Numbered from the whole stretch's first letter, positions 8,991 to 45,997 are shown. The stretch: DNA of 57,922 bases, filler included, from Sphacelaria rigidula (GCA_964200075.2; 9 parts of 9 records of this genome joined end to end with filler, not necessarily neighbours in it); one strand, 5' to 3'. Numbers and translations are program-made. Notes: generated from the sequence alone by a model not told the origin.

Positions 8991-10504
8991 CTTCCGTGGT
9001 CACAGGCTAACTACCCCAAGCTAGGGTACAAGAAAAATCTTGAAAATATATCGGGCCCAAAAACAATTCACACAGGTGCGATAAAATAGAAAAAAACAAA
9101 CACAAATCAAAAAAAAATACCAAGGAAAAAAAAAAAAAAGGAACGAAAAGGGAATACTGCTTAATTTGGGTTTTTTGGGTTTCATTTTTTCTTTTACAAG
9201 CTGAAGGCGAGCTTAAAAATTGTGACAAGCTCATGATGTGCTTGAAACGAGCAGAAAGTTGCGATACATTTTTATGCGCCTCCTCCAGCCATTGCAGCAG
9301 CTGTCTGAAAGTGCCCCCTATGGCCTATGGCGTGACTCGTCACCCGTCAACAGACAGGTTTCAATACTCCAAACTGCCATGGTTGCGGGTCTGATCCGAA
9401 AACGTTCAATGATTAGAAAAAAAAGTCATATTTTTCAATAAAAAAACAGTTTTTGAACATCGAACACCCAAAATTGTCACCCTCTCCTCGTGCTTGAAGG
9501 CTCGCCTCGTGAGGGGATACTGCCACAACGCCACAACAAGGACGCGAAGTAAGCGCATAAAGTGGGGCTTGAAATAAGGTGGCAAAGCATATTTATATTT
9601 GAAAAAAAGAAGGAGTATAGCGGAAGGGAAAAAAACGCGCATACGAAGCTAAAGCCTAACTGCCAGCCCTCTAAGTTCCGATGTCATATGCGACCATTCG
9701 GGCTGCTGGAGGCAGGGCACATTGGCCCACTCAACACGCGAGGCCAAACTGGAAGTGAACCAAACTCGAGAGCCACGATCACCAGTAGGTACTATGATTT
9801 GATTCGATTTTGATCATTTAATTGTTACACTTTAAGTAGCTCCCCAGGGGTCATGATCTAGCCGTGATCACATGATACACGTACTCAAGACCAAACAAAA
9901 CTGAATCACTCGCTGCAGAAAAAAAAAAAAAAACTAGAACAGAACAACAGAATAGCCCAAGGCGTGAAAAAAAAAAATACTGCATACCGGACAAGAAATG
10001 AGGTTCATTAGTTTGGACTGCAGGCTCGTCCTGAAGAAGGAAAGACGGGTGGAGGAACGGGGATGTACTCATTTGTTGCTTGCCTTGGTCATTTGACCGT
10101 TGACCACGCATCCCACTCGAGACGGGGGAAGGGGGAATATGATGGCAAATATATATATATATATATGACATGAGATATTTTTTTACAATGGTGCTTTTTA
10201 ACGCTTCGAACGCCGCCAGATGAACACAATGGATGGTCGAAAGCGGTCAAGTCGTTGTGAATTATGACGAAAAGCCTTCGATGATCAATTAATACGTGGA
10301 GGTCATCATCCATTGCCTTGTTCTTTGTTCATAAGGGTTGGAGTCCCCGTTCCCCCTACTACCCCAGCAACCGTGGGCATCAGACGCGCGCGTCATCAAA
10401 ACCGTGGTTTTTTCGTGTGTAAAAAAATAGTCAGTACAGCTTTCTTTGAGTTTTATTCATTTCTTGTTCATTTATTATTCATTTTTTTTTTTGTCGCACT
10501 TTGA

Positions 10505-10570: not shown

Positions 10571-11330
10571 TACAGTAACAAAATATAATTCATCACGCCT
10601 GGGTTCCTCGGGGATCAATCAGTTAATGTGCAACGCACCCTAAACAATCAATGACATTGTGAAAAAATGTACTGCGTATATGTCTAGGATTACGTGTGAA
10701 CGCTCCCGTGCAAGCGGGTCAATTAGACCTACTCTTGAAACAGTACACTTCACAAAACCCTTCAGCTCTACTTCACCCTGCGACATATTTCATTTTCGAA
10801 AGCTTGATGACACAGTGCAATGTTTTTCCATCACCGGTCACCATCGACAAGGGCGAGATTCGACATTGTAAAAGACTGTACTGCTTATAGTATGAAATGT
10901 ATTGTCTAATTCAATAGATGCAATACGATACTGTACGCAGTATCCTTTTTGGCGAACAATAGAAACCAAATCGGTGGTATCAATTGATCAGCCATTGCCC
11001 GTTTGTCCCCTGCTGCGTTGTTGCGTTGCTTTTTTCTGCTCTTTTTTTGGGAGGGGAATCGTGACGTGGTGTCCGTTACAGAAAGCCTTTTATAGACAGT
11101 GACGGATGGGTCGACTGTACGATGATTGATTATATCGATCCTTGGGGTCATAATCCAATTCTCTGATGCTTTAACGGGGTTGGTGGTTCGCCCATGGGCG
11201 TAGGTATTGTACACCGTGCCAATAAATCATCGCATATTGCAAACCGCCCCGTGTCTTAATCCCTGATCAATGGGGTATCCCTTCTCTGCCCTTGCTTGCA
11301 AGCTCCCCCCCACCCCCACCCCCACCCCCA

Positions 11331-11374
11331 CGAGGTCAATGGTGTTATGACTATGACAATCATGATCATGAGTA
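11331..11374 (+). mobile_element. 5'-truncated copy of the C-tract-targeting family (3' end CATGATCATGAGTA)
   Basis: cgaggtcaatggtgttatgactatgacaatcatgatcatgagta matches 25334-25377. C-rich on both sides. Confidence 0.8.
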
Positions 11375-11435
11375 CTCCTCCCTTCCTCCCCACGCCGCCG
11401 GTGCCTTTCCCAAACTGTCTCTGGTTTGTGAGCAG

Positions 11436-11526: not shown

Positions 11527-12455
11527 GTAGCACCCAAGGTGATTTTTCGCTAACCTTCCCTGAAATATAAAGGTACAAGGAGAAATATGTGTTGGTAGTA
11601 CCTACTCCCGGTGTCCCCCCCAAAAAATAAAGAAAAAATAAGGATAAGGGCTAGAGTGATGCTGCGCTACGAGTGCACGAATATTTTCTGGGGTTGGAAT
11701 TGTTAGGAGCCCTGTATCTCCTCCAAACACAACTTCTGGAATATGTTAGAGTACGCCAGGATTACTCTTCCAACAACGTGCTATACTAGGAATATCCCGA
11801 ATGAATTTGCAAACGGGGATACCCTGACCCATGTTCTTGTGCACCTAAAATCCTCAGGAGCCCCTGAACCAGACAAAAATCTGCGCAAAAAGGGCACCCC
11901 TACCGTACCATTGCTCGTTGGTTAGGTAGGAGAATAGTGAGAACTAGAAACTAGGGTCATTATCCAAAGCAATATCTGTGGGCGAAGGGTTGGTTGCTCT
12001 ATTGGCGGACGATAGCATTATGTGCGACAGAAATAAACGTTCGTGTTAGATTGTCAGTCAACACGTTTTTGTGCACGGAACTGTTGATCAATTCCCCCAC
12101 GTTTTTGGTGTAAAATGGAACATCCAAGGACAGGTCGAGTAGAGTACAATCCATCACGGGGTATTTCGAAAGACGCACTTGAGGTACTGTAATCAAATTA
12201 GGGTAGAGTGGTAGGAATCGTACCCGAAAAGTAACTGGAAAGCGATCCCTAAATACTCCCTACTCCCCGTTTATGCACTTTAAATACGACTTTCAAAATA
12301 CCCAGCAATTGAGTGTACTCTACTCGACCTGCCCTTGGAAACATCGGTGCAGGCAGTTTCTTTTCTTGAGATTCTGCAAGTGATCCCCCGTCTCCCTCCC
12401 CCCCCTCCCGGCCCTGCACTATCTTTCCCCGCCTCATCTCTCCTGCGTTACCAAG

Positions 12456-14960: not shown

Positions 14961-14996
14961 ATGGTCTGATGACTATGGCATGCATGATGATGAGTA
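14961..14996 (+). mobile_element. 36-nt 5'-truncated copy of the C-tract-targeting family
   Basis: atggtctgatgactatggcatgcatgatgatgagta, flanked by the imperfect duplication cccttcccccatc / ccctccccccatc. Confidence 0.8.
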
Positions 14997-16808
14997 CACC
15001 CCTCCCCCCATCGTAACATGACTTGCGGATGGGTTTTGTATGGGAAGATGAGCGAGGTCACACATCATGGCTGCAGAGGATAGTTTCATTTTGGGTGCGA
15101 GAATAATTCGATGCCTACGAAGGTCCCCAAGGTCATACTCAAAAACTGGTCCATCTTTGTTATGTAAGATCCCGTGTTTGAATATATGATAATATAGAGG
15201 ATGATATTCACGCTGACACATCGCCCGGCATATTACCCATGTTACTGTCATCTGATTCGCAAGTCCAATACAGAGCAAGACACGAGCAAGTAGTAAGCCG
15301 AACAAGGCAAGCGGGAGAATCTGGCTTGTGATATTCATGGTTCAAGTCCAATCCGCTTCGTAGCCAAACCTTCCCTGAAAAACGACCACATACAGATGCA
15401 GTCACTTTCGTGGTAACTCACGCTGAGCGTGTGCTTTTTCCTGCTTCTGTTTTCGTCGTGCCTCTCTACTACCTGAAGCGTTTTAACGCTGTAACATGCA
15501 TACGATTCCCGAGCTGCGTCGGTAGCTGGCTGAGTTACCCATTGTATATACTAAAGCACGTTCGCATCAACAAAAAGACCCTGTCATCGGAAAGATAGGC
15601 AAGACTTATCGATTCGCTTTTACTTACATTATTCTCAGACTAGACCGCGGATAAATCAGTCGTACAGTAGGTGACGAATGTAGCAGCACGGTTGGTGTGG
15701 ATGATATTCCCATCTGAATCGTTTCCGCCAGAAACAGGGTCTCTCGCAGTCGAGGAACCTTGCTTGTCCACAGAAACCGTCCCGGCAAGACGCTCGTCAT
15801 GAGGCGCAGCTTCAACAACTCATCACCAGAGAGGGATGGTATATCTCGCTACCGAGCTACACTCTTACACGGTACCCTTGGGCACACACCGCAAGGGTTG
15901 GATTTCTCGACAGTTTCGTATTTTTATTCGGGCACAGCGCTACACTAGCGCTAATGTTTCGTCCTGAACCTTTGGGGTGGGGGGATGGTGGTAATACAAC
16001 GCTTTTTCCTTAGCGTCGTTTTGCTTGGCCTAAGATTTACACGGGCGCCTCGCTCTGTGCGATTTGGGGTCCTGGTTGAACGCCTGTCTGTGTTCTAACC
16101 GGTTGGCCTCTTCTGGCTCGGAATGACCTCCGCCGTTACCTTTGAATATTTGTTCCAAGCTTCGAAATTCCGTCGTGCTATAGGGCAATATGCGATGAAT
16201 TGTTCGGCGCGCGCGCGCGCGGGGGGGGGGGGGGGGAGTGTTCAGGTTTTTTTGGATGAAACAACGCGTCTTCGGAACGNNNNNNNNNNTTTAATTTTTT
16301 CTTCCGTTTCTGAAGTCCCGGTGGTGGAGGGGGGGTAGGTGGTTTTGTTGTTGGGGGGCGGGGGGGGGGGGGGGGGGGGGGGGGGGTATTGTTGACAGTA
16401 TTTTTCGATGAAATAAGCGATCTCCTGACGTAGTAAGAATACCATAAACCATTCGTCAACATCCCGAATTCAAGCATCATGCCGATGTCTTCAGATCCTG
16501 AAGCAATGGCGGAATTCGACACACGAAAACAAACGAGCCTGTTGAGCCGAAAACCAGGAACGGTAGACCTTGCACATCTTGTTCTAGTGGATACACGCCC
16601 TACCCGTCAGTAGGAATCAGAACGTCGAAAACCTGACCGCGTGATGGAAAAATACATCAGGATTCCGCACGAGAAGTAGGGATCTATTGTAGGCCTCGTA
16701 GCAATTGTTTCATCATGTACGTGATCGTTTCAGCACCCCAACAAGTTGAGCGAGATGGGAGTATCGACCCAAACAAGGATCACTTTCGCTGATCAGCAGG
16801 CCGAGTAC

Positions 16809-18018: not shown

Positions 18019-18761
18019 TCGGGATGAACCTCAGGACCTAGATGGGTACGAAAGATGGGTACGCAAGTCCCACACGAATGCGAGATCCCACATGGGCGTC
18101 GTCCCAGGTGGGTACCTAAACCTCAGATGCAGATTGCATGGTAATGCAGACCTGCCGCGATTTTGTAGACCTTTGCTTTAGAAGGCGGGGTTGCGGGTTG
18201 TATTAAGACGGAAGCAAGACGCCAACAGCTCCTGGCATACGGTCGGTTCAGCGATGACGTGTTCATCTTCGATGTTTTGTACTCCCGTTGATTGCTACAT
18301 GCGGAGACACGCATTCTATATCGCCATTGGTTTCTGATTTGGTGCACGTCTCGTCGAGGTATTTTGAGGGGTAGGCTCTGCTTGAGCTTCAGGATACTTT
18401 TCACTGGGAAGATCGCGGATGGAAAACGTTTTTTTACCGGAAAATATGCTCTGCTTCCTATTATACTGCGATAAATATTGTGAAAACACCCGCCACTCGG
18501 TGTCTACACTAGCTGTAGGTTGACTAACACTCGATAGCTCCTACTTCATCAGGTATCTTGAATGAACCCTGTTGTCAGGCAAGACGGCCTCTCAATAATA
18601 CCCCCGTGATGTGCACCGTTTCTTGCAAGTAGTTTGCGGAGACGTTGGCCTTCTGTTTCCCACTCGATCTATATGCCTCAATAGTGTCAATAGGTTCCTA
18701 CATATATACATAAATACTGTTTCTACGCAGTATGTAGTACACTGCGCTGGCTTGAACTCAC

Positions 18762-18907
18762 GCAGCGCCAGCCCCAAGTCGGCGACCTTTGCGCACTTGT
18801 TTCCATCAGGAAGTACTGCTATAAAAACGTTTGAGGCTTTCATGTCCACATGCACTATGTTGTGCTGGTGCATGTGGTCCAGACCTTCCGCCGCTTCACC
18901 CGTGAGC
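18762..18907 (-). CDS. Ser/Thr protein kinase exon, subdomains VIa-VII (GLDHMHQHNIVHVDMKASNVF...AKVADLGLAL)
   Basis: HxDxKxxN catalytic loop and DLG motif. CAG acceptor, gtgagt donor. Confidence 0.9.
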
Positions 18908-19808
18908 CTGCATGAGTTAGAGTCATCAACATCAACATCACCAACGACACCAACAACAACAGCAACGACGACGAGAAACGCATCATCACGTAGGAAATCA
19001 ACACGCAAGAGCAAAGCCCTCCCCAGGACAGCTGCCACCCCATACCGATGGGAGAAGCACGTCGGCGATGGGCAGAATCGGTATACCGTCAACATCATAG
19101 ATGGGGCTATGGTGGGCGGTACACACTAGTTCGAGCGAGCCCGTTCAATCAACTCGTTGACAGCGGGCGAATGGATCAGTATGGGTAGCTGAAACAGTGC
19201 CTCCTCCAACATCGTATAAACGGATGCCAATTCAACCGATGNNNNNNNNNNNNNNNNNNNNNNNNNNNNNNNNNNNNNNNNNNNNTTAATTAATTAANNN
19301 NNNNNNNNNNNNNNNNNNNNNNNNNNNNNNNNNNNNNNNNNCGTGCAAGAGAGAAATGCCACTTCAACCCCATATTTTGTATGAACCCAAAAATTTAAAA
19401 TCGGCTGTTTGAAGCTGATGCATAATGTATACAGTCCGTGTTCAGGTTCTAAAATACTCTGCAGAATTGTTTTGTGTTCAGTGTAGTACCCTGTACTCCA
19501 TATGATGGGGTCACGCTTTGGGCAGTTTTTCGGAAGCTCTGCTTGTTTTTTCAAAAGTATTCTGAAAAAACAAGACAGTTTTCTGTCATAGAAATCCAAC
19601 GCCGAATCTGGAATAGCCTGAGACAACAACCAATTTGAAAATTGGAATGCACGTGAGAGAATCAAAGTTATTCCATCAAGGCACTGCGTCCGTTGTATCT
19701 TGCGCACACCGCAGTCTCACTCTGAAGGACGAGGATATTACCGTCAGCGTATCCCCCCAAACATGCTTGTTCCGAAACTTCGAAGTTTCCACGAGTTCTG
19801 CCAGGGGA

Positions 19809-19958
19809 AGTCCCGCCCAAAGGTTTCCATACATGGCTGATTCAAAGCACCGGCACTACGCACGAGTTCCACCCGGAGGTTTACATATATAGCCGATTCA
19901 AAGAACCGGCACCACGCACGAGTCCCGCCCGGAGGTTTCCATACATGAACATTTCAAA
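19809..19958. repeat. 56-bp tandem repeat (~2.7 copies)
   Basis: Units start at 19809, 19865 and 19921. Confidence 0.85.
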
Positions 19959-20387
19959 AATTCCAACTCGACCTCAGCTCGTTACAAGTAGGCCGAAAGA
20001 AGATTATAACACCGAATAATTGAAAGAGTTGGATGAGCTAACATGCAATGGTTTGAACGGCCTCGACTCCCTCGGGCGGGCATCATGCCAAAACTCATTA
20101 TGCTTCACAAAGCAGCGCTTCGCCGGGCGGAACAAAATTGCGATCCCCGAATCAACAAAACTCAACAACATAAGGACGCGAGGGCCGCACGCCCGAGCAC
20201 AGCGGGCAGGGGGGTCGCGCCGGTAACACCAATTGCCCGTTATCCGCATACCGCCGCAAAAATGAACATGAATGCGCTATGCTCTGCGAAACAGAGACCA
20301 AGAGGCTTTGCGTTGAACCATTCCCTGCGCCACCCTCGGCCGATTGTTAAACGGGTCCGCGAGACTGGTGTCGCGTTCGCTGGTCCT

Positions 20388-20420
20388 TTACCCCGGCGGC
20401 CACTTGAGCTGCCGTCCACC
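20388..20420 (-). CDS. HINT: HINT histidine-triad nucleotide-binding protein, last exon (GGRQLKWPPG*)
   Basis: Canonical HINT C-terminus GGRxxxWPPG. CAG acceptor, TAA at 20390-20388. Confidence 0.93.
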   Translation of the reverse strand, partial: GGRQLKWPPG

Positions 20421-21532
20421 CTGACAAAATCAGAGTTTGAAGAAAAACATATGGGGGTACAACGACGCGCGAGGTTTCTCTGTGAGCCCGCGTGTGTAGT
20501 GGCGTGTTGTGAAAATGGGCGGAAAGAGCACAATTACGAGCCGGTCGCACAGTCTCATACCAACACTTGTGTGTGCATAAGAGAGAGAGAGAGAGAGGGA
20601 GAGAGGGAGAGAGAGATTACGTGCATACAGAACTGCGAGGCAACCTGGAGATTCTTCTCGTCGTATCCGGCTCAACACGGCCATGCAGTTCGTCTTTTGT
20701 GCAAGTAATAATTGTTGACGCGCTACCTACAGCCCAAGTCTTCGCCTTCAGTAACCAACGTAGACATTGCCCATTTTCCCGGCTGCTTCACTTGTAGTTG
20801 TAGCTGAAGTAAACGGCAGTATGCGGATAGCAAAAAAAAACCCCGACGATGTACTTCTACTAATACCATTGAATGGATAGGTCGCGTTCTCTTTACAGAA
20901 TCTTCTTCGTCCCATATCATCAACGGGGCTATCCAACATCCCCCAACATGACACGCTACACGTGTGTGCAACGCCTTGGTGTGCGGACTGATGAATCAAG
21001 ACGGCAACGCATGTGTGCACTGCGGAGAATATGCCGCATACGAGAGGGTACAACGACGTCGCTCTCGCGGTTGTACGCCGAACTTTCTCAAGCACGTTTA
21101 GCGCAAGGCAGTTCACATAAACTCACAGACGCCCAGCAAGATACCGTCTGAAGAGAGTACCTGAACCCACAACGAAGAGAAACGCTTGAATTGAAGCCAC
21201 GATCCCCTCGCCCCCGGGGACAACCAACAGTTGACACGTCGGTCAGATCATGATTCGTCTGAAAATTACTTCTTCTCTGTATGCTGATTCGGATCATGAC
21301 GCGGATCATTTGGCCCCCCTCTTCCATGTTTGCCCCTTATAGCGCTGGACGCTGAGCTTGCCGAGTAGCGCAAAGGTTGCGCTTTGGCTTTTCTGACTCT
21401 CGCGGTCACATATTTTGTGTTTTTGGGCCAACGGACTCGAGAGTTTTCTTTGATGAGTTCTTTCAGCACATCATGATCTGTCCGACGTGTGCAACAGCTT
21501 AATAGCTCCCCCCAAAGGCGGCGTGAACTCAC

Positions 21533-21616
21533 GATGACGTGCAGATGTAGGTGATAGACGCTTTGACATCCCTGAACTCCGTCGTTCACCACCACCCGGA
21601 ATCCTTCGTCAAGCCC
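21533..21616 (-). CDS. HINT: HINT exon with the histidine triad (GLDEGFRVVVNDGVQGCQSVYHLHLHVI)
   Basis: QSVYHLHLH triad. AG/GT boundaries, phase 0. Confidence 0.95.
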
Positions 21617-22747
21617 CTGTGTTCAAAACACAAGAGAAACGCGGAGATGGCATCAATTTGACGGCAAAAAGCATAGAGTACCCGAGCGGGGCAGGGCCCC
21701 TTGATAGTTCTTACTATTTCCCTTAGTGTACGGCTCTCTCTCTTATTCATGTCATGGTCTGAGAGTAATCGAGCGGCCTGGTTGCTGTGACGGGGAAATA
21801 CTGTCTTCTTACTTCCCGGACAAATTGCCAAACGCCCGACAAGCCCGTGTCTTCCAACATCCGGAAAGCCTTACAAGTACTCGGCCGTTCCATCGTCCGG
21901 TCCTTAGGAACGATTTAACGGAGGGAACGGACGCCTACGACATACACATACACACACACACAAGAAAGAGGAATACGTCATTGCTCTCGCTTGTATCAAG
22001 CGGTCCACCTCTCCAAGACAAAATCCAAATTGGTCATGAAATGAGTAGTTTCACTTGTGCTGCATGAAAGCTTTCACTCTGGAAACCTTTCTGCGACTTC
22101 ACTCATCCTGAACACTTCAAAGGTGGTCAGAGTATGGAACGTACCGTGGACTACGCTGGCTTTTCAAGGGACTTGGAATGCAGAGTCCTTCAGAGTACGC
22201 GGGGTGTCAACTGCCGAAAACACCAATATTTCAGGGGAGCAAGGGTATCGATTGTCGAAGATGCTCGTCATCACAGGGTACCAACGGCAGCCAGCACACT
22301 CAGTACTCCAGCGTAACCTAGGTATCAAAACCGCCAAAATACCCAACCTCACCACATATCCTACCGCCCCCGCCCCCGCCCCCCAACACATTTAGAATAT
22401 TTCACACGACAGACGACACAACTCATATGACTCATTTTCGTATAACTCCGCTGCTGAGATATACGGTATAACCCAGCGGTGCCTAATTCCACTGGCCGAG
22501 TTATACTGTACATGGTCGAGTTGTACTGTATAGCTCAGCTATACCATTTGTCACTGGATGGGTTATACCGCACAACTGAGCCAACTTGTGACTTGTCCGA
22601 CGTCTTGAATATTTGGACGAAACGTTCATGTCCAACGCTATGAACCCCTCGCAATCAACGCTGCACCGTAAAATCACCGCTCCTCCTCATTGTCTAGGAG
22701 CCCCATCCCGACGATGCCATAAACACAGCAATTACGCCCATGCTCAC

Positions 22748-22876
22748 CTGCTCCTTAGCAACCTGTTGCGCCACGAACATCAGGTGCCCCAGCAGCGCCT
22801 TATTGCTCTCCACGGCCTTGCTTAGCTGGGTCAATCCATCACGGCTTTTCGGAATTACCAAGAAGTGGGTTGGCGC
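22748..22876 (-). CDS. HINT: HINT exon (APTHFLVIPKSRDGLTQLSKAVESNKALLGHLMFVAQQVAKEQ)
   Basis: APxHFLVIPK motif. 129 nt, phase 0-0. Confidence 0.95.
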
Positions 22877-23372
22877 CTGCCGTCAACAAAAAGGCGCGGT
22901 ACAGATCTTTCTCGATGTAGACAGTATGTCACTTTCCATTACAATATCATACTCTATTGTGACACAATCTATTCACCCTAGTATTTTATGTTCTCCCATG
23001 AACAAAAAAGTTTAATATTAAAACATAAAATAAAATATTCAAGTGCCGCTGGTTACGTTCGTGGAAAGCCATCATAGCATCACAAAAAACGTGCGTAATT
23101 CGCACACTTCGAAATGCGCCGCCCTCGGGACAAGGACAACACGGGAAGGTATGCCGCACTATCACCATTGAAAAATGTCGTCTGGGGTAAAGGCCTAGGC
23201 GAATACCACAAATCACACAACTAGCATTGCCGAATCAGGAAGGCAGAGCTACTCGTATGAACCCCATGAATTATAAACACCAACCAAACGAATTAGTACA
23301 CTGCGGTTCACGACTAAATGTCATCTCTGCCATGCCGCGCCCGCGTCGTCAAACTGGCGTATCAACAATCGA

Positions 23373-23440
23373 CAATCAGCAATCAGCAATCAGCATCACA
23401 ATTAGCAATCAGCAATCAGCAATCAGCAATCAGCAATCAA
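23373..23440. repeat. (CAGCAAT)n heptamer; (CT)n follows at ~23510-23547
   Basis: Read directly, inside a HINT intron. Confidence 0.9.
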
Positions 23441-23507
23441 CGATCAGCGCTACTGTAGGTGGGTTTATGTGGAATTCAATCCCGAATTGAGTTTTTTTTT
23501 CTCTTTT

Positions 23508-23552
<45 letters not shown>

Positions 23553-23953
23553 CAAAACTCAACCATACCAGAAAGCGTGCGTGCGGCCGAGCTTGGTAAC
23601 ACCTCCGACGTTTGAACGAGCGAGCACTGAATCGAAAACAAGCTCACGAGAAGAAGCCGTGTTTGCCTGCCGCGCTCCCAAGATGCAGCAACGCGAAGGC
23701 CACTGCATCTAACCTTCGATCGGCACGGCTACTACATACCAAATATACCAGTCAGTGCAAACACGAGCACACGACAAGAATAATTGTTGGGCAGTGATGA
23801 CCTGATCTCCATCGAAACACATCCTGCTCTCCCTCGACATTTTCGCGATTTCCGTTCGCAGGCGGGATCACCTTCACCACACACGGATGCTCCCGTGCCG
23901 TACCGCATCTCACCGGATTGGACTTAACGCCGACAAGAAAGTCTCCAACTCAC

Positions 23954-24404
23954 CTGAGGATTAATATCCTTGAACGCAAGGCAGAGGTCGTCTTCGTGGA
24001 CGATGTCCGCGGGGATCTCCTTGGATACGATCTTGTCAAAGATCGTTACGGTGTCGGCGTTTATTTCCTGAGCCGCTGCTGCTCTGGCCGCGGCTTCCAC
24101 TTCGCCCCCGCCTCCGCCGTCCGACATGTGTCTGACTAGTCGCGCAATACGGCGCCTAGCGCTTGAAGGGTTGCTCCTCGGGGTGAAACTGCGGCGGTCG
24201 AAGCTTCGGCTAGTGGGAGCTTGCGTTGTTGTCGCCGCTACTGGTGCGGCGTGGAAGCTTCTGGCGGTAGCACGAGTTATCGAGCGGCCTAGCGTGGATG
24301 CTCTTCCTGAGGATGAGGCGGGGTTGAAGGATAAGGAGAGCGTCCTCGAGGATGTTCCTGCTGCTGCCACTGCTGCTCGGACGAAGCTTGCGGTGATAGC
24401 CGCT
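23954..24404 (-). CDS. HINT: HINT exon: R/S/A/T-rich transit-peptide-like extension followed by MSDG...[31 protein letters not shown] (AUG at 24127)
   Basis: TIFDKI..EIPA..V.EDD.CLAF.DINPQ motif. gtgagt donor, pyrimidine tract plus CAG acceptor at 24407-24405. The 5' boundary is less certain than the core. Confidence 0.88.
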
Positions 24405-25074
24405 CTGACAGTCGATGGGGAAAGAAGGGAGACAAAACAGGTGAGCGGACAAACGGCACGTGTCTTACTGGTACTCCGGAGTACCAGTATATGCGAGCTG
24501 GTTTTTCTACAGTAGGAAAATAAGAATTCGAACCCCGACAGGGAAATAACTACAGACTCGAGCAAAAGGTACCTGCGAATCAATTTCCAACACTGGCGCA
24601 CGCATAAGCTGAAGGATGATGCCCGCAAGGCTCATCAGGTCTAAACCGGCGACGAATTGTGCACGTCGAACTTGAATTCTAGCCGGGCCTAGCCAATTGA
24701 GGAGCCCGGCCTGAATTTTTCACCACATGGCAGCGTTTGAACTGTGTTTCCGCCGAAACAACAGCAGTCTTCTTTTCTTAGCTCCGAGAGCTCGGTATCC
24801 ACTTTCTTTTGCTTGGGGACTTTTCCGTTAGGATCCCCCCGATTTCATTTTCCTACGTGAATTTCTTTTCCCCACGGGGTTGGCATCGACTGGTGATGAC
24901 GCTGCTAAAAATGTCTCTCACTGCGTAAGCTAGGCAGCCAGGTTACCGACTTTTTTCTGCGCGCTTGCGTTTTTTTCGCGGCAGCCATGATGGTGGTCGA
25001 ACTGAATCATAATGTGCGGGGTGGGAGAACCCTAGTTCTGCGCAGAGGGGATGATCATTCTGCGTAGCGTTGGA

Positions 25075-25377
25075 ATGGTGAAACACCCGGTGAGGCAGTG
25101 TGGAACCTGCGGCTGTCTCTGAAAGTGGTGATCGCAAAAAATGAAGCAACTCATTGGACGCTGTCAACCATTCGCAAGACAACCAGTACGCTTCGGGTCG
25201 AATAATCCGAGCAGGATGCAGCTCGCATTTCATGCGACTCGCCGAACTCATCACGGCGCTTCGCGCTTGGCGATAGATTGCCAAACTGCTTCGGCGAAAA
25301 CCCGGCGTGCTCCGTCCCGGCTTTGTAGGGATGCGAGGTCAATGGTGATATGACTATGGCATGCAAGATCATGAGTA
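25075..25377 (+). mobile_element. Longest copy of the C-tract-targeting family (5' end not defined)
   Basis: 25075-25190 matches 57808-57922. 25234-25336 matches 32925-33027 and, in part, 45446-45490. The 3' end matches five other loci. Confidence 0.8.
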
Positions 25378-25859
25378 CACCCCCTCCCGGTATCCCTGCT
25401 CCGATATTTGTGAAACTCTGCTGCCTCTCGACAAATCATCGGCAGGTGGGCAGGTGAAATTGATCCTCAAATCGCTTACGGTAGGCGTGGTTGGCTTGTG
25501 GCTCCCCATTATTTTTAGACGGTAAGGAGAAATTGACTTCCAAATTGTTTTCAGCAGGCGTGGTGGCCGACCCCTCCCTCTCTTTCGGCAGAGCGTAACC
25601 TCTCCCCCCCCCCCCCCCCCCCCCCCCTCCCATCGTCTCTTCTGGGCGGCCCGGGCGGTGTGGGGGCTCGGCCAGGACCTCGGGTCGTNNNNNNNNNNNN
25701 NNNNNNNNNNNNNNNNNNNNNNNNNNNNNNNNTTAATTAATTAANNNNNNNNNNNNNNNNNNNNNNNNNNNNNNNNNNNNNNNNNNNNCAGTCAACGGTC
25801 ATCATCCTGCTGATCACTACATAGCACATCATGTAGGCGATATTTCGTCACAAAGCCCA

Positions 25860-26095
25860 CCATACCCTTACCCGACAGTTGTGTGAGTTCTGTACATCAT
25901 GTTTACCCGTGCCCGGAGCGCGCATATGCTCTTGAAGGAGAACCCGATTGTCTGTAAGCCTCCCATAACATACCCGACAAGTTCTGCAAGTTCTGTAAGA
26001 CTTTTATCCAGTACAGGTACCCGACAGTTCTGTGAGCTCTGTAAGCCTCCCATACCCCTACCCGGGGTAAGGGTATACCGTTGTAAATATACCTG
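25860..26095. mobile_element. Fragment of the MITE family with TACCCGACAGTTCTGTGAG sub-repeats
   Basis: Same sub-repeats as 26761-27379 and 32345-32683. Confidence 0.7.
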
Positions 26096-26401
26096 ATTGC
26101 AGGTACAGCACAGGTATACACGTTAGAGAGGTATGGATATGGGCTCAATCCAAACACAACCTCATGACCTGGACATGTACCTCCCATCGAGCAACCCACC
26201 CTACTCCTTCATTCAACACTGCACACCAACAAAAAATCAATGTTGGAAAGTTCTTCAGCTTATAATTTGACGGGATACGAGGTACTGCTGAGTGGAAACA
26301 CGAAACATGAGCAGCACTGCAGACCGTCTGAATGAATCACCCCCAAACTCGAGTGGTTGCTCGAGCGGGGGCGGTTCACCTGCGCCACCAGGGGATCAAG
26401 T

Positions 26402-26677
26402 AGCAAGACGCACGCCATCGACGCTGATGGTGGTTGTGTCGTGGTCATCGAACCCCAGGCCGTTATCGACATGCACAGCAGAGAATATTAGCTGCTACCG
26501 GAACTCATCAAGGCCGTCGATGATTTTGTCGTGCCGAAGGACTTTCATAGAGCGGGCAGCCGTGAATGCTCCTTCATGTACACCGTGGGGATGTACGTGA
26601 AGCCGATAGATGTTGACGATCTCGTGCACATGTACTACTGCGAGTGTTCGTGTAATATTTCTCTATCAGCCCCGTAA
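26402..26677 (+). pseudogene. Decayed ORF (..LLPELIKAVDDFVVPKDF..SFMYTVGMYVKP..HMYYC..), possibly the N-terminal zinc-finger region of a DNA transposase
   Basis: Coding-like codon bias in a frame broken by TAG near 26488. The family assignment is a weak recollection only. Confidence 0.3.
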
Positions 26678-26760
26678 AGCTGTTCAAAGTTTTCGGTAAC
26701 GGTCATCTATAGTTTGCCATGGTAGTGACGTAGGTCCCACCACAGGGGTGATGATAATAC

Positions 26761-27379
26761 CAAGGTCGTCTTTAGTAGAGTACGGTTTTTCTATATACCC
26801 GGGGTATTTTCCCGGGTATTTGCCGTACCTTACAGTTCTTTGACTTCTGTAAAACTTTTATACCGGTACCCGACAGTCCTGTGACTTCTGTAAGACGTTC
26901 ATACCGGTATCCGACAGTTGTATAATCTCTCCAAGACTTTCATACCCTTACCCGATAGTTCTGTGAGTTATGTAAGCCTCCTGTACCGTTATCGGGGGGC
27001 GCCGGTATGCTCTTGATAAGATGCCCGATTACGGGTACGGTTATCTGCGCGACCTCCATACCCTGCCCGACAGTTTCTGTGAGTTCTGTAAGCCCACCGT
27101 ACCCTTACCCGACGGTTCTGTGAGTTCTGTACATCATGTTTACCCGTACCCGGAGCGCGGGAGTGCTCTTAAAAAAGTCCCCGATTGCCGGTACGGTTTT
27201 TCTGTAAGCCGCCCATACCGTACCCGACAAGTTCTGCAATTTCTGACATATTTTAAAACCTGTACCTGGCAGTTTTTAATTTCTGTGAGACTTTCATACC
27301 GGTACCCTATATTTCTTCAAGTTCTGCAGGAGTCACATACCCTACAGAACATACCCGCACCCTACAGGACACAACCTTG
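26761..27379. mobile_element. hAT-like MITE with CAAGGT... TIRs and internal tandem sub-repeats
   Basis: caaggtcgtctttagtagagtac ... ccctacaggacacaaccttg, with many tacc(c/g)tacccgacagttctgtga units. No clear TSD. Confidence 0.7.
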
Positions 27380-28015: not shown

Positions 28016-28196
28016 AGTCACCAGCCACTGCTTCAAGTGCTTCTTTAACAACCTCTCGGAGTGGATGATGAAGTGGACTGTGGACATCTCACCCTAACCC
28101 ATCCCGGGTCCAGCTACGCTGTGGATACTCTGATCAGGCCCACTGCCATTACGCCACCACAGCAGGTTGAGGTGTACACATGCATGATCATGAGTA
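28016..28196 (+). mobile_element. Insertion between 11-bp TSDs: inverted copy of the downstream flank plus the last ~17 nt of the C-tract-targeting family
   Basis: CACCCCCACCT at 28005-28015 and 28197-28207. 28016-28179 is the reverse complement of ~28191-28354 with about 7 differences. Confidence 0.85.
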
Positions 28197-28207
28197 CACC
28201 CCCACCT

Positions 28208-29727
28208 GCTGTGGTGGCGTAATGGCAGTGGGCCTGATCAGAGTATCCACAGCGCAGCTGGACCCGGGATGGGTTAGGGTGAGATGTCCACAGTCCACTT
28301 CATATCCACTCCGAGAGGTTGTTAAAGAAGCACTTGAAGAAGTGGCTGGTGGCTTCGATCGATACTGATCAGTAGATTATTGTGTTGCTAGCAATGTCCT
28401 CCGGGTATATTACACCGCAGGGCTCCGACGCAGTTCAAGTCACTGTCAAACGATTGTGAGCGGTGGCCCCCGGGACATCCTCGAGGAGAGGGTGTACAGC
28501 TCCGCCGAGAATCTGACGGATGGGAGTGAGAGCGCTTGGCCGCCCGCCGGACAGTATACGTGGCTGACGCCATTTATGAAGGTAGCATTATTCGTGTTGA
28601 CCTACCTTTTGGCTGGATGCGACTTCTTACCATATGTATTTCGTGCTGAAGGCCCTGCGTACGCCAAATCTGTTTACAGCACCAATACTCACGGAATAGG
28701 ACGGCATCCTGAGAGTGGAGATCGACGAGAGCGTGAAGCTGCCGGCCGCCATATTCTTTTCCAGGCACGAAAACGCTTCTGCGCAAATCGCCACGCCGGG
28801 GCATCTCTTCGCCACGGGGGGGTGGGACTTGGGATCGTATGTCAACAAGATCCGCCTGTGTACCACCACAGTACATGATATGCCTTCCCGGTGCTGCTCA
28901 GACTTGGACGCCTGTCGGAAGCACGTAAGTAAGTCTGACGCGGTATTCGAACACCGGGGAGGGAGGTTTCAGAAGATGCCCACGGTGGACTTCAACGGCC
29001 GCGCTTGGGTTGTTGAACCACAGAAGAAGACTCATCACAAGCGGGACATAAAACTGGCGAGCAGAGAGGCAGAGGTGCTCACGCGGGACAACATCGTTAT
29101 TTATTTATCAAGCCACACGTATGTTGATGGGTCCGGGAACGTGCGAACCCTGAGGTGCTCATGTAACCCGGCATAGGCGCCACAAAGAGACCACCCCTGC
29201 AAAAAATGTAGGTGTCCGGGGAAACTGCACGCTGAGCTGCGGTTGCCAGGGTAGCTGCTTGCTACCCCCCGCCATCCTCCGGGGTAACCGAGGCGACTTC
29301 CAGTGGTGATGCTGACAGTGGAAATGGCGGTGCACGTGAACGGTCTATTTCTGCCAGGGGCGGATCTGCGGCGAACCGTGGGAGGCGCGGATCCACAGCG
29401 AAGCGCGGGAGGGGCGGATCCACGGCGAACCGTGGAAGGGTCAAGGCGAGTGGAGCAACCAACGCGTCGAGGATAGCAGTCAGCGTGAGGCTCGGCGATG
29501 AGCCGCGCCGGTTTGTCGACACGAGTGTGGTGGGAGAGGGATGGGGTCTAGGAATATCCCCGAATAATCGTTATTGTCGCGACGGTGGACATGAAGACTA
29601 CAACAGCGTCGGGTCAAGAAGTGCAGCCGGTATCTGGATTGGATATTCCGATGTGGAGTGCAGCGGGTCGGAGACAGATGACCCGGCAACGGAGGCAGAT
29701 AATAACTATGACGATTTCATGTTTTGA
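28208..29727 (+). pseudogene. Decayed C-terminal part of an AcademX-like transposon protein (XPG/FEN1-like nuclease + Cys-rich finger + acidic tail)
   Basis: YLLAGCDFLP, then DACRKHVSKS...NGRAW, then RCSC..PCKKCRC../NCTLSCGCQGSC. Intronless, with stops and frameshifts and an in-frame 27-bp x3 repeat at ~29357-29439. Confidence 0.55.
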
Positions 29728-32683: not shown

Positions 32684-32894
32684 GTAGTAAAGTGCATGGC
32701 GTCGTTTTGGCATTTAAATACGCACAGGGCGTTATTTTTTCGCACGAGCTACACAGGGTCTTGACCAATACCCTCCCTACCCCAACGAGACTCTCATTTA
32801 TTGATTGGGTGATTCGACCCCTTCTTCTTTTCAGTTGTCTCCTTCGCGCCTAACTCAATAAACCCTATCCTGTAAGGGGAGAAGTGGAGGGGTG

Positions 32895-33027
32895 CACCCA
32901 TGATCTTGCATGCTGTAGTCATGGGCGACTCGCCGAACACATCACAACGCTTCGCGCTAGGTGATTGATTACGAGCCTGGTCCGGCGAAAACCCGGCGTG
33001 CTCCGTCTCGGCTTCATAGGAATGCGA
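32895..33027 (-). mobile_element. Copy of the C-tract-targeting family with an inverted 5' segment
   Basis: The 3' end is on the minus strand (32895-32923). The upstream segment (32925-33027) is in the opposite orientation relative to the 25234-25377 copy. Confidence 0.8.
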
Positions 33028-35626
33028 CGAAAGGGGCGAGGGCGGGCGGGCGGGCGGGGGTCTGAGATGAAATTTCAAACACGTCATGAGTAAATAATGA
33101 CACCAGCAGGCTTTTTTCGTTAGGTGTTTTACCTCCGGGGGGGGGGGGGGGGGGGGGTTCAGAATTGTTGGTTAAGTGGAAGATACAACGCCTGCATGGA
33201 CAGTCCGGCACTCGGTAGGCGATTACCACACGTGTATAGGTCGTACCCTCTCCTGGTGATGTGTTGCACATCACTACAGGTCGTAGCTGCTCTGCAATCG
33301 CGTATGCATCTCCGCTGCTGTAAACGTCACCGTTGACGCTGCTGAGCGGGATGCAGAGGCGTACAGGACACAGCCATTTCGCTTGCTATTATGCGTTGCA
33401 CAAACACAAGCTACGGTAGACCCCAACGGAAACTTTAACTCGGGCTGCTCGATTATGTCGGGCTACGAGCTCGGCCGGCCTACTACAACCTAAAAAACTT
33501 TCCACCACCAAAACTTATCTCAAAAACGGCGGCGACATCGACATATCGCCAGGCAAACATGTCCCTGTGATGGGGAGATCGCCATTCGTGTGCTTCGAGA
33601 ACTCTAAATGTGCTCACGAGTGTTGATGAAAAAATCCATATTTTGGACATGTGTCATTTCACATTTTTCACCACTTTTGCCGAGTTTTCTCTGGCAGCAA
33701 GGCATTTTATGCCGCGCTTTCTTTAGCAGTGCACGAAGAAGGCGCAGCGGTACATTACCGTTCAGGTTTGGGTGCCATCTGATACCTGTGGCGCGTGTTT
33801 TGGCCACACGAAAGTCGCCCAAACTGGCTCTTTCTCGCGGGGTGTCGATCCCGAACCACAAAAGCCTTTTCAAGATCGTGGAAAACTTCAAACAGGAACC
33901 CGAACCACAAAAGCATGTTCATGCCGGGGTATTTTTCCACCCTGATTCTTTTTGCGTTCTCGTTGATTTGGGAGCACGAAGACAGCGGTTATGTAGCGAA
34001 TATCACGAGAACATGAGAGAAAAGCAGTTGAAAACAGTTGAACATTGCCTTGGCCTTAGTCAGCAGCAAACACAAGTCGAATGATCTGGGGTCCCTTAAT
34101 ATTTAGTTTTGACGTGAAGCCTTCAACACCGTCATATCTGCGTAATGTGGGTCCCAGTCATGCGAACGCAACAGTCCACAAAAGCGTGTTCAAGATCACT
34201 CGAGAATGTGTAGATTGGTATTAGAGGAAGGTGCCACATTCACAGCTGCAGCAGGGGAAGTCGCTGATGGCCCGGTCTGCATTGATACGGTGGGTAACCA
34301 CGGTGCGTGGGATTATATTGTTTCAACACCCTGCTGTCTGATGACCAGTATGATGGGTACAGTGACAGTTGAGCACGGAGGCTGCGACGGATCCCGCCGG
34401 CCGCATCACCAATCTTCGCCCAGTCATAGATAAGCGCTCGAAGAAAACTGGCAAACAAGTATCGTTTATGGTTCGCTATATATGTGAGGGTTTGGAGCTG
34501 AACATTTCCGCTTGAAAAATCTCGACGGTAGAAGGTTACGCTCCTGTCGCGCGACCAGTGGGTATTGCCGCGGACCCTTGCCAGCGTACCTGGCACTGGG
34601 GGCGACATCCCGGTGCAGACAGTCTCATCACTGCCGGGACGGCTATACAAACAGGCCAGCAGCCGGGATGGCCGTTGCACTGGTGTTGCTCTAGCGTTAT
34701 CAACTTGGAGTACAGCCGCACAGGCTTTGCACGTCAATATTTCGGTGATTGCCTCACATCCACTTCGGCCATGTGCTGTGGATTATTTCACGATCTCACC
34801 GCCTAATATGTATGGAAATGTTTTACACCCTGGACAAGAGCTTTCTACAGTCAGCATACAAGTGAAAAGAATGTACTGTGCACAGTATGGAAGATGCTGC
34901 CTACTGCAACGTGCGCAATACGCGTGGTGAGAACTGCGCACACATCACTTCGAGACAGGGTAGAAATCTCCACGCGGTATGAGTTGTTACAGCCCGCTTG
35001 CGCGCCGTAGCGGCTGCGTTACCATACAGCTCCGCTCAAGATACAGGGGGCAATTATAGCGGCAGAGGCGGCTTATTACTCCTGCTTGCGCCACACAGTG
35101 TAAATACACGCTTGGCTGCAACACCGACCGCTGTACTAGATGTGGCGGAGCGAGGGGTAGTACACCACGTACACACAGACAGCAAGCAGTATCATACATA
35201 TATACTGTATACAAGTGTGATTTGAAACCCGTGCGCGCCGGATGGGGCAGGCATGTAGAGAACCCTCCATAAGTTCGCCGTGTACTACCGGCACGCGACC
35301 TTTTTTCGTTAGCAATCACTTGCGATGTGTGCTGTGACGAGTCTCGTGCGTGGTGGTCCTTTTTACACCTCCGCACACCGCCCGTGAAGCGAGCTCTCCA
35401 TGCCGGAAGTACCCACCCCTCTTCCCGTGGTGATCTTCACTCTTGGTCTGAGACAAATGAAACTGCGGAATATGACAGTATCTACTGGAAGATACATATT
35501 CTCCCACACAAATGCCTCCATTATATTAAAGAGGAATAACACTGATATATTTTCGACTTGCGTCACCCCCGGGAGGCCAGTACCAACCTCCCGAAGGGGA
35601 ACCTTATGCATAAAAATAATATGCTC

Positions 35627-35747
35627 AATAGATGCAATAGACAAAAATGTACTGGGTACAGGATAGGCCTATTGCAACTTTTGTCGACCGATACAGCTGC
35701 GCTAGGCCTATACTTCACCCAGTACATTTTTGTCTATGGCATCTATT
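35627..35747. repeat. 121-bp hairpin (31-bp arms with 1 mismatch)
   Basis: aatagatgcaatagacaaaaatgtactgggt / acccagtacatttttgtctatggcatctatt. Confidence 0.85.
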
Positions 35748-36300
35748 TACCATATATTGTCGTTGTCCATGGATGTGAAAAAGTCATACAAATATTTCGA
35801 GGAATAAAATACCTCTAGGCGGGAATCGAATCGGTGTTGTACACTCTAATGCTGACAGTCTGACCGTGAAACATGCCGCTGATATGATCACGCGAAAATG
35901 ACGATGCGTGGCGCAATTGTTCGAATCTCGCGGTGAAATTCGGACGCCAGAAAAGAACATACAGGCCTGCGCTGTCCCTGGAATCAACTGCTGTCTTATT
36001 GTTTTCTTCTCTTCACTTACTTTGACCCTGAGACCGCGAGGGTAGCCCATCTGGACCATACATCCTCTTGATTCATTAATGGCTTCTCAAGTGAAATTGA
36101 TACCGATTCAACAAATAATCTACTCTCGCCGTCCAAGTGTCAGAAGATAAGCTGAAGACAGCCCAAAATTTCGCAACCCCCGGAGTTGGGGCAAAGCACA
36201 AAGCCTCTTTACAGAGGATGCTGCGCTCTCGTAAGCCGACAGCATCTTGTTCAGTCTTATGATTAAAAATTGCGCCTGCGTATGCCGCACCACAAAACAG

Positions 36301-36777: not shown

Positions 36778-37371
36778 GTGAGACGTGATGTGTGTCGTGT
36801 ATGTGGTGTGTCGTGTGTGTGTGATATGTTGTGACATGATGTAATGTGCTTGCTGAGTACTGTATGTGGTGTGCCCTCAAGAAGGAACGGAAGAGGTGGT
36901 CTTTCTTGGGTTTTGGGAGGGGGCAGCGGGGGCGGGAGGAAATGATGATATTTTATTTTGCACAAAGACATGCGAGATATCTTTCAGTAGTAGTTCTGTG
37001 CACAACGTCGATGCGATATTTCCCCACACCCGCTCACGTCGTGTCCTCGCACAAACTTCACCGTGACTCCCCTCCCCCCCCCCCCACCTGCTAGAGGGGA
37101 AATGGGGAACGTAAACGAAGATAGCTTTAAATCGTTTGATGCAATAGACAGTAGCGAGAAAACGATGGCTATACTAGGGAATAGATGTTGGCCAGAGACG
37201 GCGAAACAGGACGGGGGATAAGATATATAAAGGGTTTTTGTGTGCTGTACGGAAGGAACGTAATGAGCGCCGGACAGTTGGAGGTGGCTCTAATAGGAGT
37301 AGGAACGGTGCTCCGTCTCGAAAGGGATGCGTGGTGAATGGTCAAATGACTGAGGCAAATAACAAATAAGT

Positions 37372-37402
<31 letters not shown>

Positions 37403-38710
37403 ACTACCCGCTCTCGCCGACTACCGTCGCGTCATGTNNNNNNNNNNGCCGAAGGGGGTGGCGGTGGGATGTTTAAATGCCTGAGCCAAAAAACAAAAAA
37501 AGCCCCCCCCCCCCCCCCCCTCCCGCGCACCAGACTGTGATTTGGAAACTTGTTCGTTTCACTCCCCTTACATCTAACCCATATCTTGTGAGGGGAGTGG
37601 CCGGTGACGTGTGCGCGCTACTTTTTTGTGATTTTGTATTTCGAGGCTTACGCTATTTTTGTCGTGTTTCGGTGCTTCGCTGAGGGGGCCTTGGATGGGT
37701 GTTTGTGGGTGTGTCGGACATGCAGTTTATTTTATTTTTCTTCTCACTTCTAACTCCTTCCCTTCGAGTCCGTGATCTCAAGGGATCAACCCATCTCTCC
37801 ACCAGCACAAGCCTTACATTCTCGTATCGCCGATTGGACCATGACTATCAGCAGTCCCGCACCGCATCGAATGTCGTCCAGCAAATTCATCCAAACATAA
37901 TATATATTTTTTGCTGCTCGCGTTCTCACTTACGACAAAAATCAGATCCAAGTACTTGAGAGGAAAAAGCCAAACTTGAGACCCGCGAATGTCCTGCCCC
38001 GATGGCATTAGTTGTACCGTTAGATCACCGGGACGCGGCATGAGCTGTGGATACATAGCTGGATACAGGGACAATTAGATATGGGCAATGTTTCATGTTA
38101 TGATCTAATTTTTTCGTCTTTTCAATTCATATTTGGACTCTTTCGAGCTTAGTTTGATGGATGGCTGTCGCGTAAAGAGTTTTCTTTTTTTTGTCGGGAT
38201 CAGAGGATCCCTCTGTTTTTTCTTGTGGTGTATTTATTGGCTGATGATTCCGTTGTATCATTCAATGACGGTGCCCCTGAGCTCATCTTCAGATATGTGT
38301 CGAACGTTACATGTCCGCCGTGCGTTGACTGATGCTGATGAGATCCTTGTCTCTTTCTGCCCCTCCTCCTTCTCCCATCGCCTCCGCCATCGCTCCTTGT
38401 ACCGACGCATCCACTCCTGACCACGGTACCATGACATTATTGCTATATGCGGCGCCCCGACTCGGCTTGCACGGCGCACACGTGGATGTCAACATTTTTT
38501 TTTCTGGAAAATAACGACGCAAACATTTAATGGTATTTCCCACCCCCCCCCCCCCCCACCCCCCCCCCCCCACAAAACCCACNNNNNNNNNNNNNNNNNN
38601 NNNNNNNNNNNNNNNNNNNNNNNNNNTTAATTAATTAANNNNNNNNNNNNNNNNNNNNNNNNNNNNNNNNNNNNNNNNNNNNCACTCAAGCCCCCCCCCC
38701 CCCCCCCCCG

Positions 38711-38843
38711 ACTGGTCGTTTTGATGTGGTCGATAAATTTCGCCTCGCCCTGATTGGACAGGTCGCTCCCAGAATTTTTCATCATTATTTCACCAACACG
38801 TCGTGAAGGTGGTATTAGTGAGCTCCAGTCCCAAAAGGGTTAA
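38711..38843 (-). mobile_element. piggyBac-like MITE end running into a G-tract
   Basis: Reverse complement of 50896-51023. Ends ...cagtcccaaaaggg|ttaa. Confidence 0.7.
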
Positions 38844-45445: not shown

Positions 45446-45490
45446 CCCTACAAAGCCGGGACGGAGCACGCCGGGTTCTCGCCGGACCAG
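45446..45490 (-). mobile_element. Internal fragment of the C-tract-targeting family, starting at a C-tract
   Basis: ctggtccggcgagaacccggcgtgctccgtcccggctttgtaggg. It lacks the usual 3' end. Confidence 0.7.
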
Positions 45491-45928: not shown

Positions 45929-45997
45929 GGCTTTGAAGGGATGCGAGGCCAATGGTTTCATGTCTCATGACTACGGAATGCAAGATCATGATGAGTA
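45929..45997 (+). mobile_element. 5'-truncated copy of the C-tract-targeting family
   Basis: ggctttgaagggatgcgaggccaatgg...catgatgagta, with catcccccc on both sides. Confidence 0.8.

Follow-up and report, generated by a model that had tools for sequence, protein, structure and literature searches.

The window analysed here, a stretch of 57,922 nucleotides of Sphacelaria rigidula DNA, is made up of nine stretches of 6,347 nt each (6,346 nt for the last) with N44-TTAATTAATTAA-N44 spacers between them and three extra 10-N gaps inside, leaving a non-N total of 57,092 nt. Positions 24870 to 25379 on its plus strand hold the longest copy of a repeat family, which is ~510 nt long, old and diverged, and without an ORF of any known family. 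This main copy ends in ...CATGAGTACA and is immediately followed by the C-rich run CCCCCTCCC (25380 to 25388, plus strand), which by its sequence could be either a (C)n tail or a target duplication. The copy lies ~750 nt upstream of a HIT-family gene, and a 58-aa exon at 23954 to 24127 on the minus strand matches a 139-aa HIT-family protein of Sphacelaria rigidula at 100% identity. Pfam matches in the window were limited to such pieces of host genes, namely protein kinase, HIT, TCP-1 and a weak CLN3.

A preliminary description of this DNA had listed eight related fragments and estimated their density at one per 7 kb. Comparing the repeat region with the window by blastn (word size 7), we recovered all eight and added 10059-10122 (minus), 37305-37372 (plus), 32925-33027 (plus) and a weak match at 37460-37502 (plus); the main copy also proved to reach further 5', as far as 24870. 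The family therefore counts 13 fragments over seven of the nine records, covering 1,474 of the 57,092 non-N nucleotides (2.6%); the reported abundance holds, while the density is higher than estimated, at one fragment per 4.4 kb.

The second long copy, on the minus strand at 45130 to 45438, has the same 5' start as the first and is cut at the start of its record; 24870-25179 and 45438-45130 are 73.5% identical by blastn. Seven nucleotides upstream of it, in head-to-tail arrangement and preceded by a C run, sits an internal fragment (45446 to 45490, minus strand) that corresponds to 25286-25330 with 93% identity over 45 nt and has no 3' end. Four plus-strand copies are truncated at the 5' side. 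One, equivalent to 25075-25188, lies at 57809 to 57921, beginning after a 22-nt C tract (57784-57805) and cut by the window end; the others, at 45929 to 46000, 11331 to 11375 and 14961 to 14998, retain the 3' end. The copy at 11331 is preceded by a 25-nt C-rich tract (11305-11329), and the remaining two are flanked on both sides by short direct repeats that are taken up below. Merely the last 20 nt of the element are found at 28179 to 28198 (plus strand), at the centre of a palindrome, and two further pieces, at 32893 to 32924 (minus) and 32925 to 33027 (plus), form a composite. The rest belong to a diverged subfamily. Its copy at 10063 to 10122 (minus strand) is 80.7% identical to the reference over 57 nt, ends in ...ATGAGTACA as elsewhere in the family, and has C-rich DNA on both sides, and the copy at 37305 to 37402 (plus strand) consists of 37305-37372, 74.5% identical to the reference, and then a pure (C)30 at 37373-37402. 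A probable third member at 37460 to 37520 (plus strand), which is the weakest assignment of the census, is 75% identical to 37295-37387, runs into (C)18, and lies 155 nt downstream of the 37305 copy in identical orientation.

Nine of the 13 fragments bear a constant end, ...ATGAGTAC(A). Of the other four, two are interrupted by record ends, one forms the composite's inverted half, and only 45446-45490 truly lacks it, such that the constant end was present in nine of ten assessable insertions, and its orientation to the C strand never varied. The 28-nt 3' motif of the preliminary description, scanned with at most three mismatches, gave three matches in the window (11347, 14969 and 25350) and none in 100 shuffles. 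The 5' ends, by comparison, fall all along the unit, at reference positions 24870 (twice), ~25072, 25234 (inverted), 25282, 25303, 25309, 25319, 25325, 25334, 25342, 25350 and 25360. These are 12 distinct ends for 13 fragments, and the sole coincidence is that of the two long copies at 24870. A fixed 3' end combined with 5' truncation, as originally proposed, is thus borne out within the window.

At the 3' side, the core of the main copy ends at 25379 and gives way to the C-rich run; the terminus of the element reads GAGTACA, followed by C runs. Applying a threshold of at least 8 C within the next 12 nt, we found C-rich DNA behind eight of the nine 3' ends (the ninth has 7), compared with 1,322 of 113,934 background positions (1.16%; binomial P = 2.9e-15), which confirms the reported C-rich surroundings. 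The C runs at both junctions lie on the same strand and are often unequal: the 37305 copy has none upstream and (C)30 downstream, and the 11331 copy has 25 nt of C-rich DNA upstream against a degenerate 16 nt downstream. Because of this inequality, the shares of tail and of target in a C run are inseparable in these data. The 3' region also contains short self-complementary hexamers (GCATGC, TCATGA and, in some copies, CATGATCATG), from which a palindromic 3' end had been described. The predicted folds of the last 67-89 nt in four copies were no more stable than those of shuffles (z -0.27 to +0.19) and lend no support to a structural role of the 3' palindrome.

Three insertions lie between direct repeats, which are 11, 9 and 8 nt long: CACCCCCACCT at 28005 and 28197, CCCCCATC at 14953 and 15005, and CATCCCCCC at 45915 and 46003. 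For the eight insertions with both junctions, we searched 30 nt of upstream and 36 nt of downstream flank for common words, using 56 mismatched flank pairs as control. The longest common word averaged 6.6 nt in own pairs and 5.8 nt in cross pairs (permutation p = 0.079), and words of at least 8 nt (8-11 nt), containing letters other than C, occurred in three of eight own pairs versus four of 56 mismatched pairs. Target-site duplications (TSDs) in the C-rich DNA of the window are plausible, though not significantly enriched over C-rich controls. All three previously reported duplications exist as repeats; the CACCCCCACCT pair brackets a composite of the element end and an inverted copy of the downstream flank.

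To view the family genome-wide, we examined Logan contigs of four public runs from three studies (X1, X3 and X4, probably DNA, and X6, guessed to be RNA), taking those with at least 80% likeness to 24720-25540; the best-matching runs may be the assembly's own sample. The four runs held 71,415, 38,160, 54,373 and 3,076 matching contigs. In X1, summed contig depth, which is not equivalent to copy number, stood at the single-copy level on the 5' side (79 at 24832-24859), climbed to ~1.1 million at 24916-24943, peaked at 29.7 million at 25308-25335, and then dropped from 6.45 million (25364-25391) to 332 (25392-25419). This cliff at the 3' edge was present at 25384-25392 in all four runs. Depth at 25308-25335 exceeded that at 24916-24943 by 27, 23, 25 and 100 times in X1, X3, X4 and X6, respectively. 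Since depth falls to the single-copy level by 24832-24859, the 5' boundary lies ~470-515 nt from the end with no repeated DNA upstream of it. More precisely, it falls between 24870, where two window copies start, and 24917, where the depth step and the contig joints are found, giving a unit of ~470-515 nt.

The depth profile was not monotonic. It dipped to ~10^4 at 25028-25083 in X1, and at many positions more than 85% of the matching depth carried a letter other than that of the main copy; part of the unevenness can be attributed to the age of this copy. The last bin in X1 (25364-25391) was 4.6 times below the peak bin at 25308-25335, so that some copies may also lack the extreme 3' end, as the window fragment 45446-45490 does. 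Behind 25382-25388, loose contig ends had a consensus of ~17-20 C (in the three larger runs, 261 to 1,019 contigs at each listed place). Before 25292, loose ends read poly-C followed by ~17 nt of the element, which suggests that copies preferentially begin near 25275-25285, and the window copy 45490-45446 begins there. Other contigs joined 25384 to 25292 through short C-rich linkers (19, 18 and 14 contigs), or 25322, 25330 and 25331 to 24869 or 24917, the type of joint seen in the window between 45446-45490 and the second long copy, or 25330 and 25388 to 24917. Joints running from the 3' end back to 25292 and 24917 show that copies form head-to-tail arrays, and tandem occurrence is seen in the window as well, where 45490-45446 lies beside 45438-45130 and the 37305 copy is followed by the one at 37460.

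We then considered what the unit might encode. Among 159 ORFs of at least 90 aa and 59 ORFs of 60-89 aa upstream of C tracts, Pfam detected no reverse transcriptase, endonuclease or transposase in the window, and the open frames of the unit itself had no Pfam match. A 131-aa minus-strand frame of the element had one unnamed match among 5.8 billion proteins (70% identity over 40% of the query); the repeat family is not annotated as protein. Metagenome contigs scanned for exact patterns of the element returned 0 stretches, and a viral-contig scan returned three loci with 19-20 nt in common with it, which are chance matches. A scan of 24800-25450 for sigma-70 promoters and terminators gave nothing, a result with no bearing on a eukaryote. 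Rfam had no match at the gathering score in the whole window and, at thresholds up to E = 5, a sole match to the Hatchet ribozyme in 24700-25688 (E = 1.3, minus strand). ARAGORN found no tRNA gene, and the unit has no terminal inverted repeats (TIRs) at its ends but only two internal inverted pairs of 11-13 nt. In these respects the earlier statement that TIR, tRNA head and coding ORF are absent agrees with our searches. The family is real and very abundant, with a constant 3' end, variable 5' ends and tandem joints, and it is non-coding.

Several known classes can be set aside on this basis. With no tRNA found by ARAGORN and no Rfam match at the gathering score, the element has no detectable Pol III head from tRNA, 5S or 7SL RNA and is not a canonical SINE; without inverted repeats at the unit ends, it is not a TIR DNA transposon or MITE. 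Helitrons have 5' TC...CTRR 3' ends with a subterminal hairpin and insert between A and T. This element ends in GAGTACA and C runs, its flanks are C-rich, and its 3' region folds no better than shuffles, and it was rejected as a Helitron. The copies could alternatively be retro-copies of an abundant cellular non-coding RNA, that is, processed pseudogenes, which would likewise show a constant 3' end and 5' truncation with no ORF, and the 5' head of the unit is of unknown origin. We regard such an origin as most unlikely, given that neither Rfam nor ARAGORN recognised an RNA family or tRNA, that the 3' 70-90 nt show no excess of folding, and that the diverged subfamily, the variant letters in most of the depth at many positions and the tens of thousands of contigs indicate a family amplifying from its own copies.

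Closely similar elements have been catalogued in another brown alga. The curated transposable element library of Ectocarpus sp. 7 (Genome Biol 2025; PMC12477816) describes RTEX-1_Ec32, a 5,867-bp LINE with 'single EN-RT ORF; (C)n 3'' and a 'C-rich' TSD, and RTEX-2_Ec32, with '(C)n termini/TSD'. It also describes RTEX-N1_Ec32, a non-autonomous element of 604-607 bp with '5' head unknown' that 'can be present in tandem', and that is the most abundant single family, with 3,812 + 2,304 copies and 2.48 Mb. Tails of other LINE clades in this library are different: (CAA)n for RTE, (CA)n for CRE and (A)n for Chlamys (PMC12477816). An unclassified repeat named 'Sower' is given in a review as the most abundant of Ectocarpus, at 1.2% or ~2.5 Mb (PMC3145265). 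Since the figures of ~2.5 Mb and 1.2% agree, Sower, reportedly a repeat from the 2010 genome paper, is probably RTEX-N1_Ec32.

Compared by their annotated features, the Sphacelaria element and RTEX-N1_Ec32 share a brown-algal host, a short non-autonomous unit with a head of unknown origin, tandem occurrence, a (C)n end with C-rich flanks, the lack of an ORF and very high abundance. They differ in that the host here belongs to the Sphacelariales and the visible unit is 90-140 nt shorter (~470-515 versus 604-607). Density also differs: 2.6%, or one fragment per 4.4 kb, in the sample given by our window, against 1.2%, or roughly one copy per 33 kb, for RTEX-N1 in Ectocarpus. RTEX-1 and RTEX-2, whose annotated hallmarks are the (C)n 3' end and C-rich TSDs, are the type of driver that we propose, but they are 5.5-5.9 kb long with an EN-RT ORF, and none such is present in the window. 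A literature search on Sower, on RTE-X with poly-C and on transposable elements of Sphacelaria rigidula, with the supplements of the Phaeoexplorer preprint outside its scope, found no account of this repeat in Sphacelaria. Papers on Blepharisma and Saccharina mention RTE-X or RTEX without (C)n tails in their available parts.

The window fragments might alternatively be no more than 5'-truncated copies of a long autonomous LINE, representing its 3' UTR, with no separate short element at all. Most copies consist of just the last 20-110 nt, a part that would be common to a LINE and an element dependent on it; the last 60 bp of RTEX-N1_Ec32 are 83% like those of RTEX-1/2 (PMC12477816); and the window also has a diverged subfamily that keeps this end (10063-10122 and 37305-37372). 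Yet the two long copies have a common starting point (24870 and 45438), each behind a C run, and the fall in X1 depth from 1.1 million to 79 leaves nothing repeated upstream of that start, which makes this explanation quite unlikely. It is instead likely, in our judgement, that the repeat is a non-autonomous, (C)n-tailed and probably RTE-X-dependent retroposon, the Sphacelaria counterpart of Ectocarpus RTEX-N1 ('Sower').

No reverse-transcriptase partner turned up: the window has no gene for such an enzyme or an endonuclease that bears the element's 3' end, and the collection scans gave nothing related. Retroposition is therefore an inference, as are the RNA intermediate, the geometry of priming, the dependence on an RTE-X LINE and the reading of the C run as a templated tail instead of the target alone. 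The RNA of the element would end in ...AUGAGUACA, followed by C's. An endonuclease/reverse transcriptase encoded by a LINE, most likely of the RTE-X clade by analogy with Ectocarpus, would nick a C/G homopolymer tract, and the exposed G-rich 3' end could pair with the C-rich end of the RNA and prime cDNA synthesis there (target-primed reverse transcription). Synthesis would usually stop early, which could explain why most copies are limited to the last 20-110 nt. Each insertion would end in, or regenerate, a C tract usable by later copies, giving rise to head-to-tail arrays. The core of the preliminary description, a non-autonomous retroposon inserted through target-primed reverse transcription at C/G tracts, fits the evidence. 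Its term 'tail-less' is probably wrong because ~17-20 C follow the end genome-wide; the Ectocarpus annotation treats the corresponding C run as a (C)n tail.

Pairs of SINEs and LINEs with a common 3' tail are known, among them Bov-tA with Bov-B/RTE and UnaSINE1 with UnaL2. The proposed arrangement resembles these pairs in that a non-autonomous element borrows the reverse transcriptase of a LINE via a common 3' end and leaves 5'-truncated copies. It is unlike them in that their heads are tRNA-derived and transcribed by Pol III, of which nothing is detectable here, and in that their tails are short repeats or A-rich rather than (C)n.

Two copies depart from simple truncation. The composite at 32893-33027, read on the minus strand, runs from C-rich DNA into the antisense of reference positions 25336 to 25234, in descending order, next into a sense piece from 25350 to the end of the element, and finally into C-rich DNA. 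The inverted upstream piece is the 84.5% match at 32925 to 33027, and the direct 3' piece (equivalent to ~25350-25379, followed by CCCCTCC) is the one at 32893 to 32924. The junction lacks ~11 nt, and CCCCTT is found on both sides (AAGGGG in the window, at 32874 and 33031). Twin priming of L1 yields an antisense upstream piece and a sense 3' piece, and such 5' inversions of human L1 were reportedly described by Ostertag and Kazazian in 2001. An inverted 5' and a direct 3' segment would be the layout expected from twin priming, and the order and polarity of the pieces would be difficult to explain unless both target strands had primed on an RNA. The composite is like the human L1 inversions in having an inverted upstream and a direct 3' segment, a small junction deletion and a flanking repeat. 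It is unlike them in being a single example from a short non-autonomous element, with a flanking repeat of just 6 nt that is C-rich.

The other departure is the 339-nt palindrome at 28016 to 28354, whose arms are 95-97% complementary and meet around TGATCA within the end of the element. The left arm repeats, in inverted form, the element end, the C run and 147 nt of the flank downstream, and the 11-nt direct repeat noted above (28005 and 28197) brackets the inserted composite. One possible route is that a nascent cDNA, still joined to the downstream flank, snapped back at CATGATCATG and copied itself and the flank. This copy is suggestive only, since fold-back DNA repair would yield the same arrangement.

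Such repair raises the broader prospect that the family originated at the DNA level, either through capture of repeat pieces during break repair at G/C tracts that stall replication or as a DNA transposon or Helitron-like element. The palindrome with its copied flank is of a kind that fold-back repair can make, the fragments do sit in C tracts, the piece at 45446-45490 lacks the 3' end, and the flanking repeats fell short of statistical support as TSDs. Repair capture, though, would not produce a constant 3' end in nine of ten insertions with one orientation versus the C strand, nor is a genome-wide cliff at one position expected from it, and the missing TIRs, the ends that differ from those of Helitrons and the flanks rich in C instead of A/T speak against a transposon. 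We therefore consider a DNA-level origin very improbable and retain retroposition as the preferred explanation.

The window contains 22 C/G tracts of at least 10 nt in 57 kb, and the repeat fragments touch just six of them. No 3' motif shared at E of 0.05 or below was found upstream of the other long C tracts. As only six tracts are touched and the sequences upstream of the others have nothing detectable in common, this repeat family cannot by itself account for the C tracts; the remaining ones may represent target sites, other families' tails, or insertions of which truncation has left hardly anything. Another (C)n-linked repeat, of 154 nt, begins right behind (C)19-21 at 38688 and at 51047 (minus strand). 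C/G tracts also break the assembly.

Tentatively, we raise the possibility that (C)n-tailed retroposition is a self-feeding process that makes the unusual C/G homopolymer load of this genome, with the C tract of each insertion serving as the next landing site. If true, this would account for the tandem arrays and for a density several times the Ectocarpus figure. A bolder variant would have the C runs at one or both junctions added untemplated by the reverse transcriptase and used for annealing, as opposed to being copies of an RNA tail or duplications of target DNA.

The family with its C tracts covers a few per cent of the sampled DNA and lies close to genes, and copies and tracts alike fall at record ends and gaps; assembly and gene calling in Sphacelaria should therefore benefit once the family is masked and its ends are known. 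Copies of the twin-priming and snap-back types offer natural material on the behaviour of a reverse transcriptase. To our knowledge, few described LINE/SINE pairs retropose into poly-C/G targets. The finding overturns no current knowledge, as this kind of element is already catalogued in Ectocarpus. If the homology to RTEX-N1 is true, a (C)n-tailed pair of an RTE-X LINE and its non-autonomous partner, present in both Sphacelariales and Ectocarpales, would be an old and very successful brown-algal system.

Two exons of a HIT-family (HINT) gene were recognized at 23954-24127(-) and 21269-21622(-), and the start codon of this gene has the main copy of the (C)n-associated retroposon (the element; 24870-25379, + strand) about 750 nt upstream. 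Further pieces of host genes were a protein-kinase exon at 18595-19125(-) and a TCP-1 chaperonin exon at 48180-48503(-). Among the public sequencing runs compared with 19342-25688, X10, from a second, differently coded organism, contained 6% of the words sampled from this record, which may reflect either the element or the gene.

Several other repeats had no relation to the element. These included tandem or locally repeated DNA at 5053-5597, 19809-19946, 25853-27343 and 50553-50884, with units 66-83% alike, and, besides the palindrome at 28016-28354, five large palindromes of unrelated sequence (2499-2920, 7550-7970, 8356-8748, 12123-12339 and 35619-35755; 137-422 nt, arms 69-83% alike), which resemble repeats of the foldback or long-TIR MITE type. 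Part of the second palindrome (7813-7956) was also similar to 40944-40800, and 7979-8021 resembled 8783-8741.

C runs also accompanied sequences other than the element. A distinct 154-nt repeat, present at 38688-38841 and 51047-50894(-) with 87% likeness, starts directly after C runs in both copies, (C)19 and (C)21 respectively; it may belong to another (C)n-associated element, as its 5' end. At 16237-16265(-) and 16387-16420(-), two neighbouring C runs, (C)16 and one of 34 nt, each follow a similar A-rich end reading ...TTTCATC.AAAAA..CTG.ACA..., a likeness below blastn-short significance; these ends and their runs possibly constitute a second (C)n-tailed family.

Each of the three 10-N gaps in the window (16280-16289, 37438-37447 and 51102-51111) had a long C/G tract nearby (16221-16236, 37373-37402 and 51025-51045, respectively), at a distance of about 60 nt or less. 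Record ends at 32236, 38582 and 38683 were likewise at C/G runs or no more than about 11 nt away, and two further ends, 45130 and 57922, lay inside copies of the element. The assembly seems to have been broken by homopolymers and by the element.
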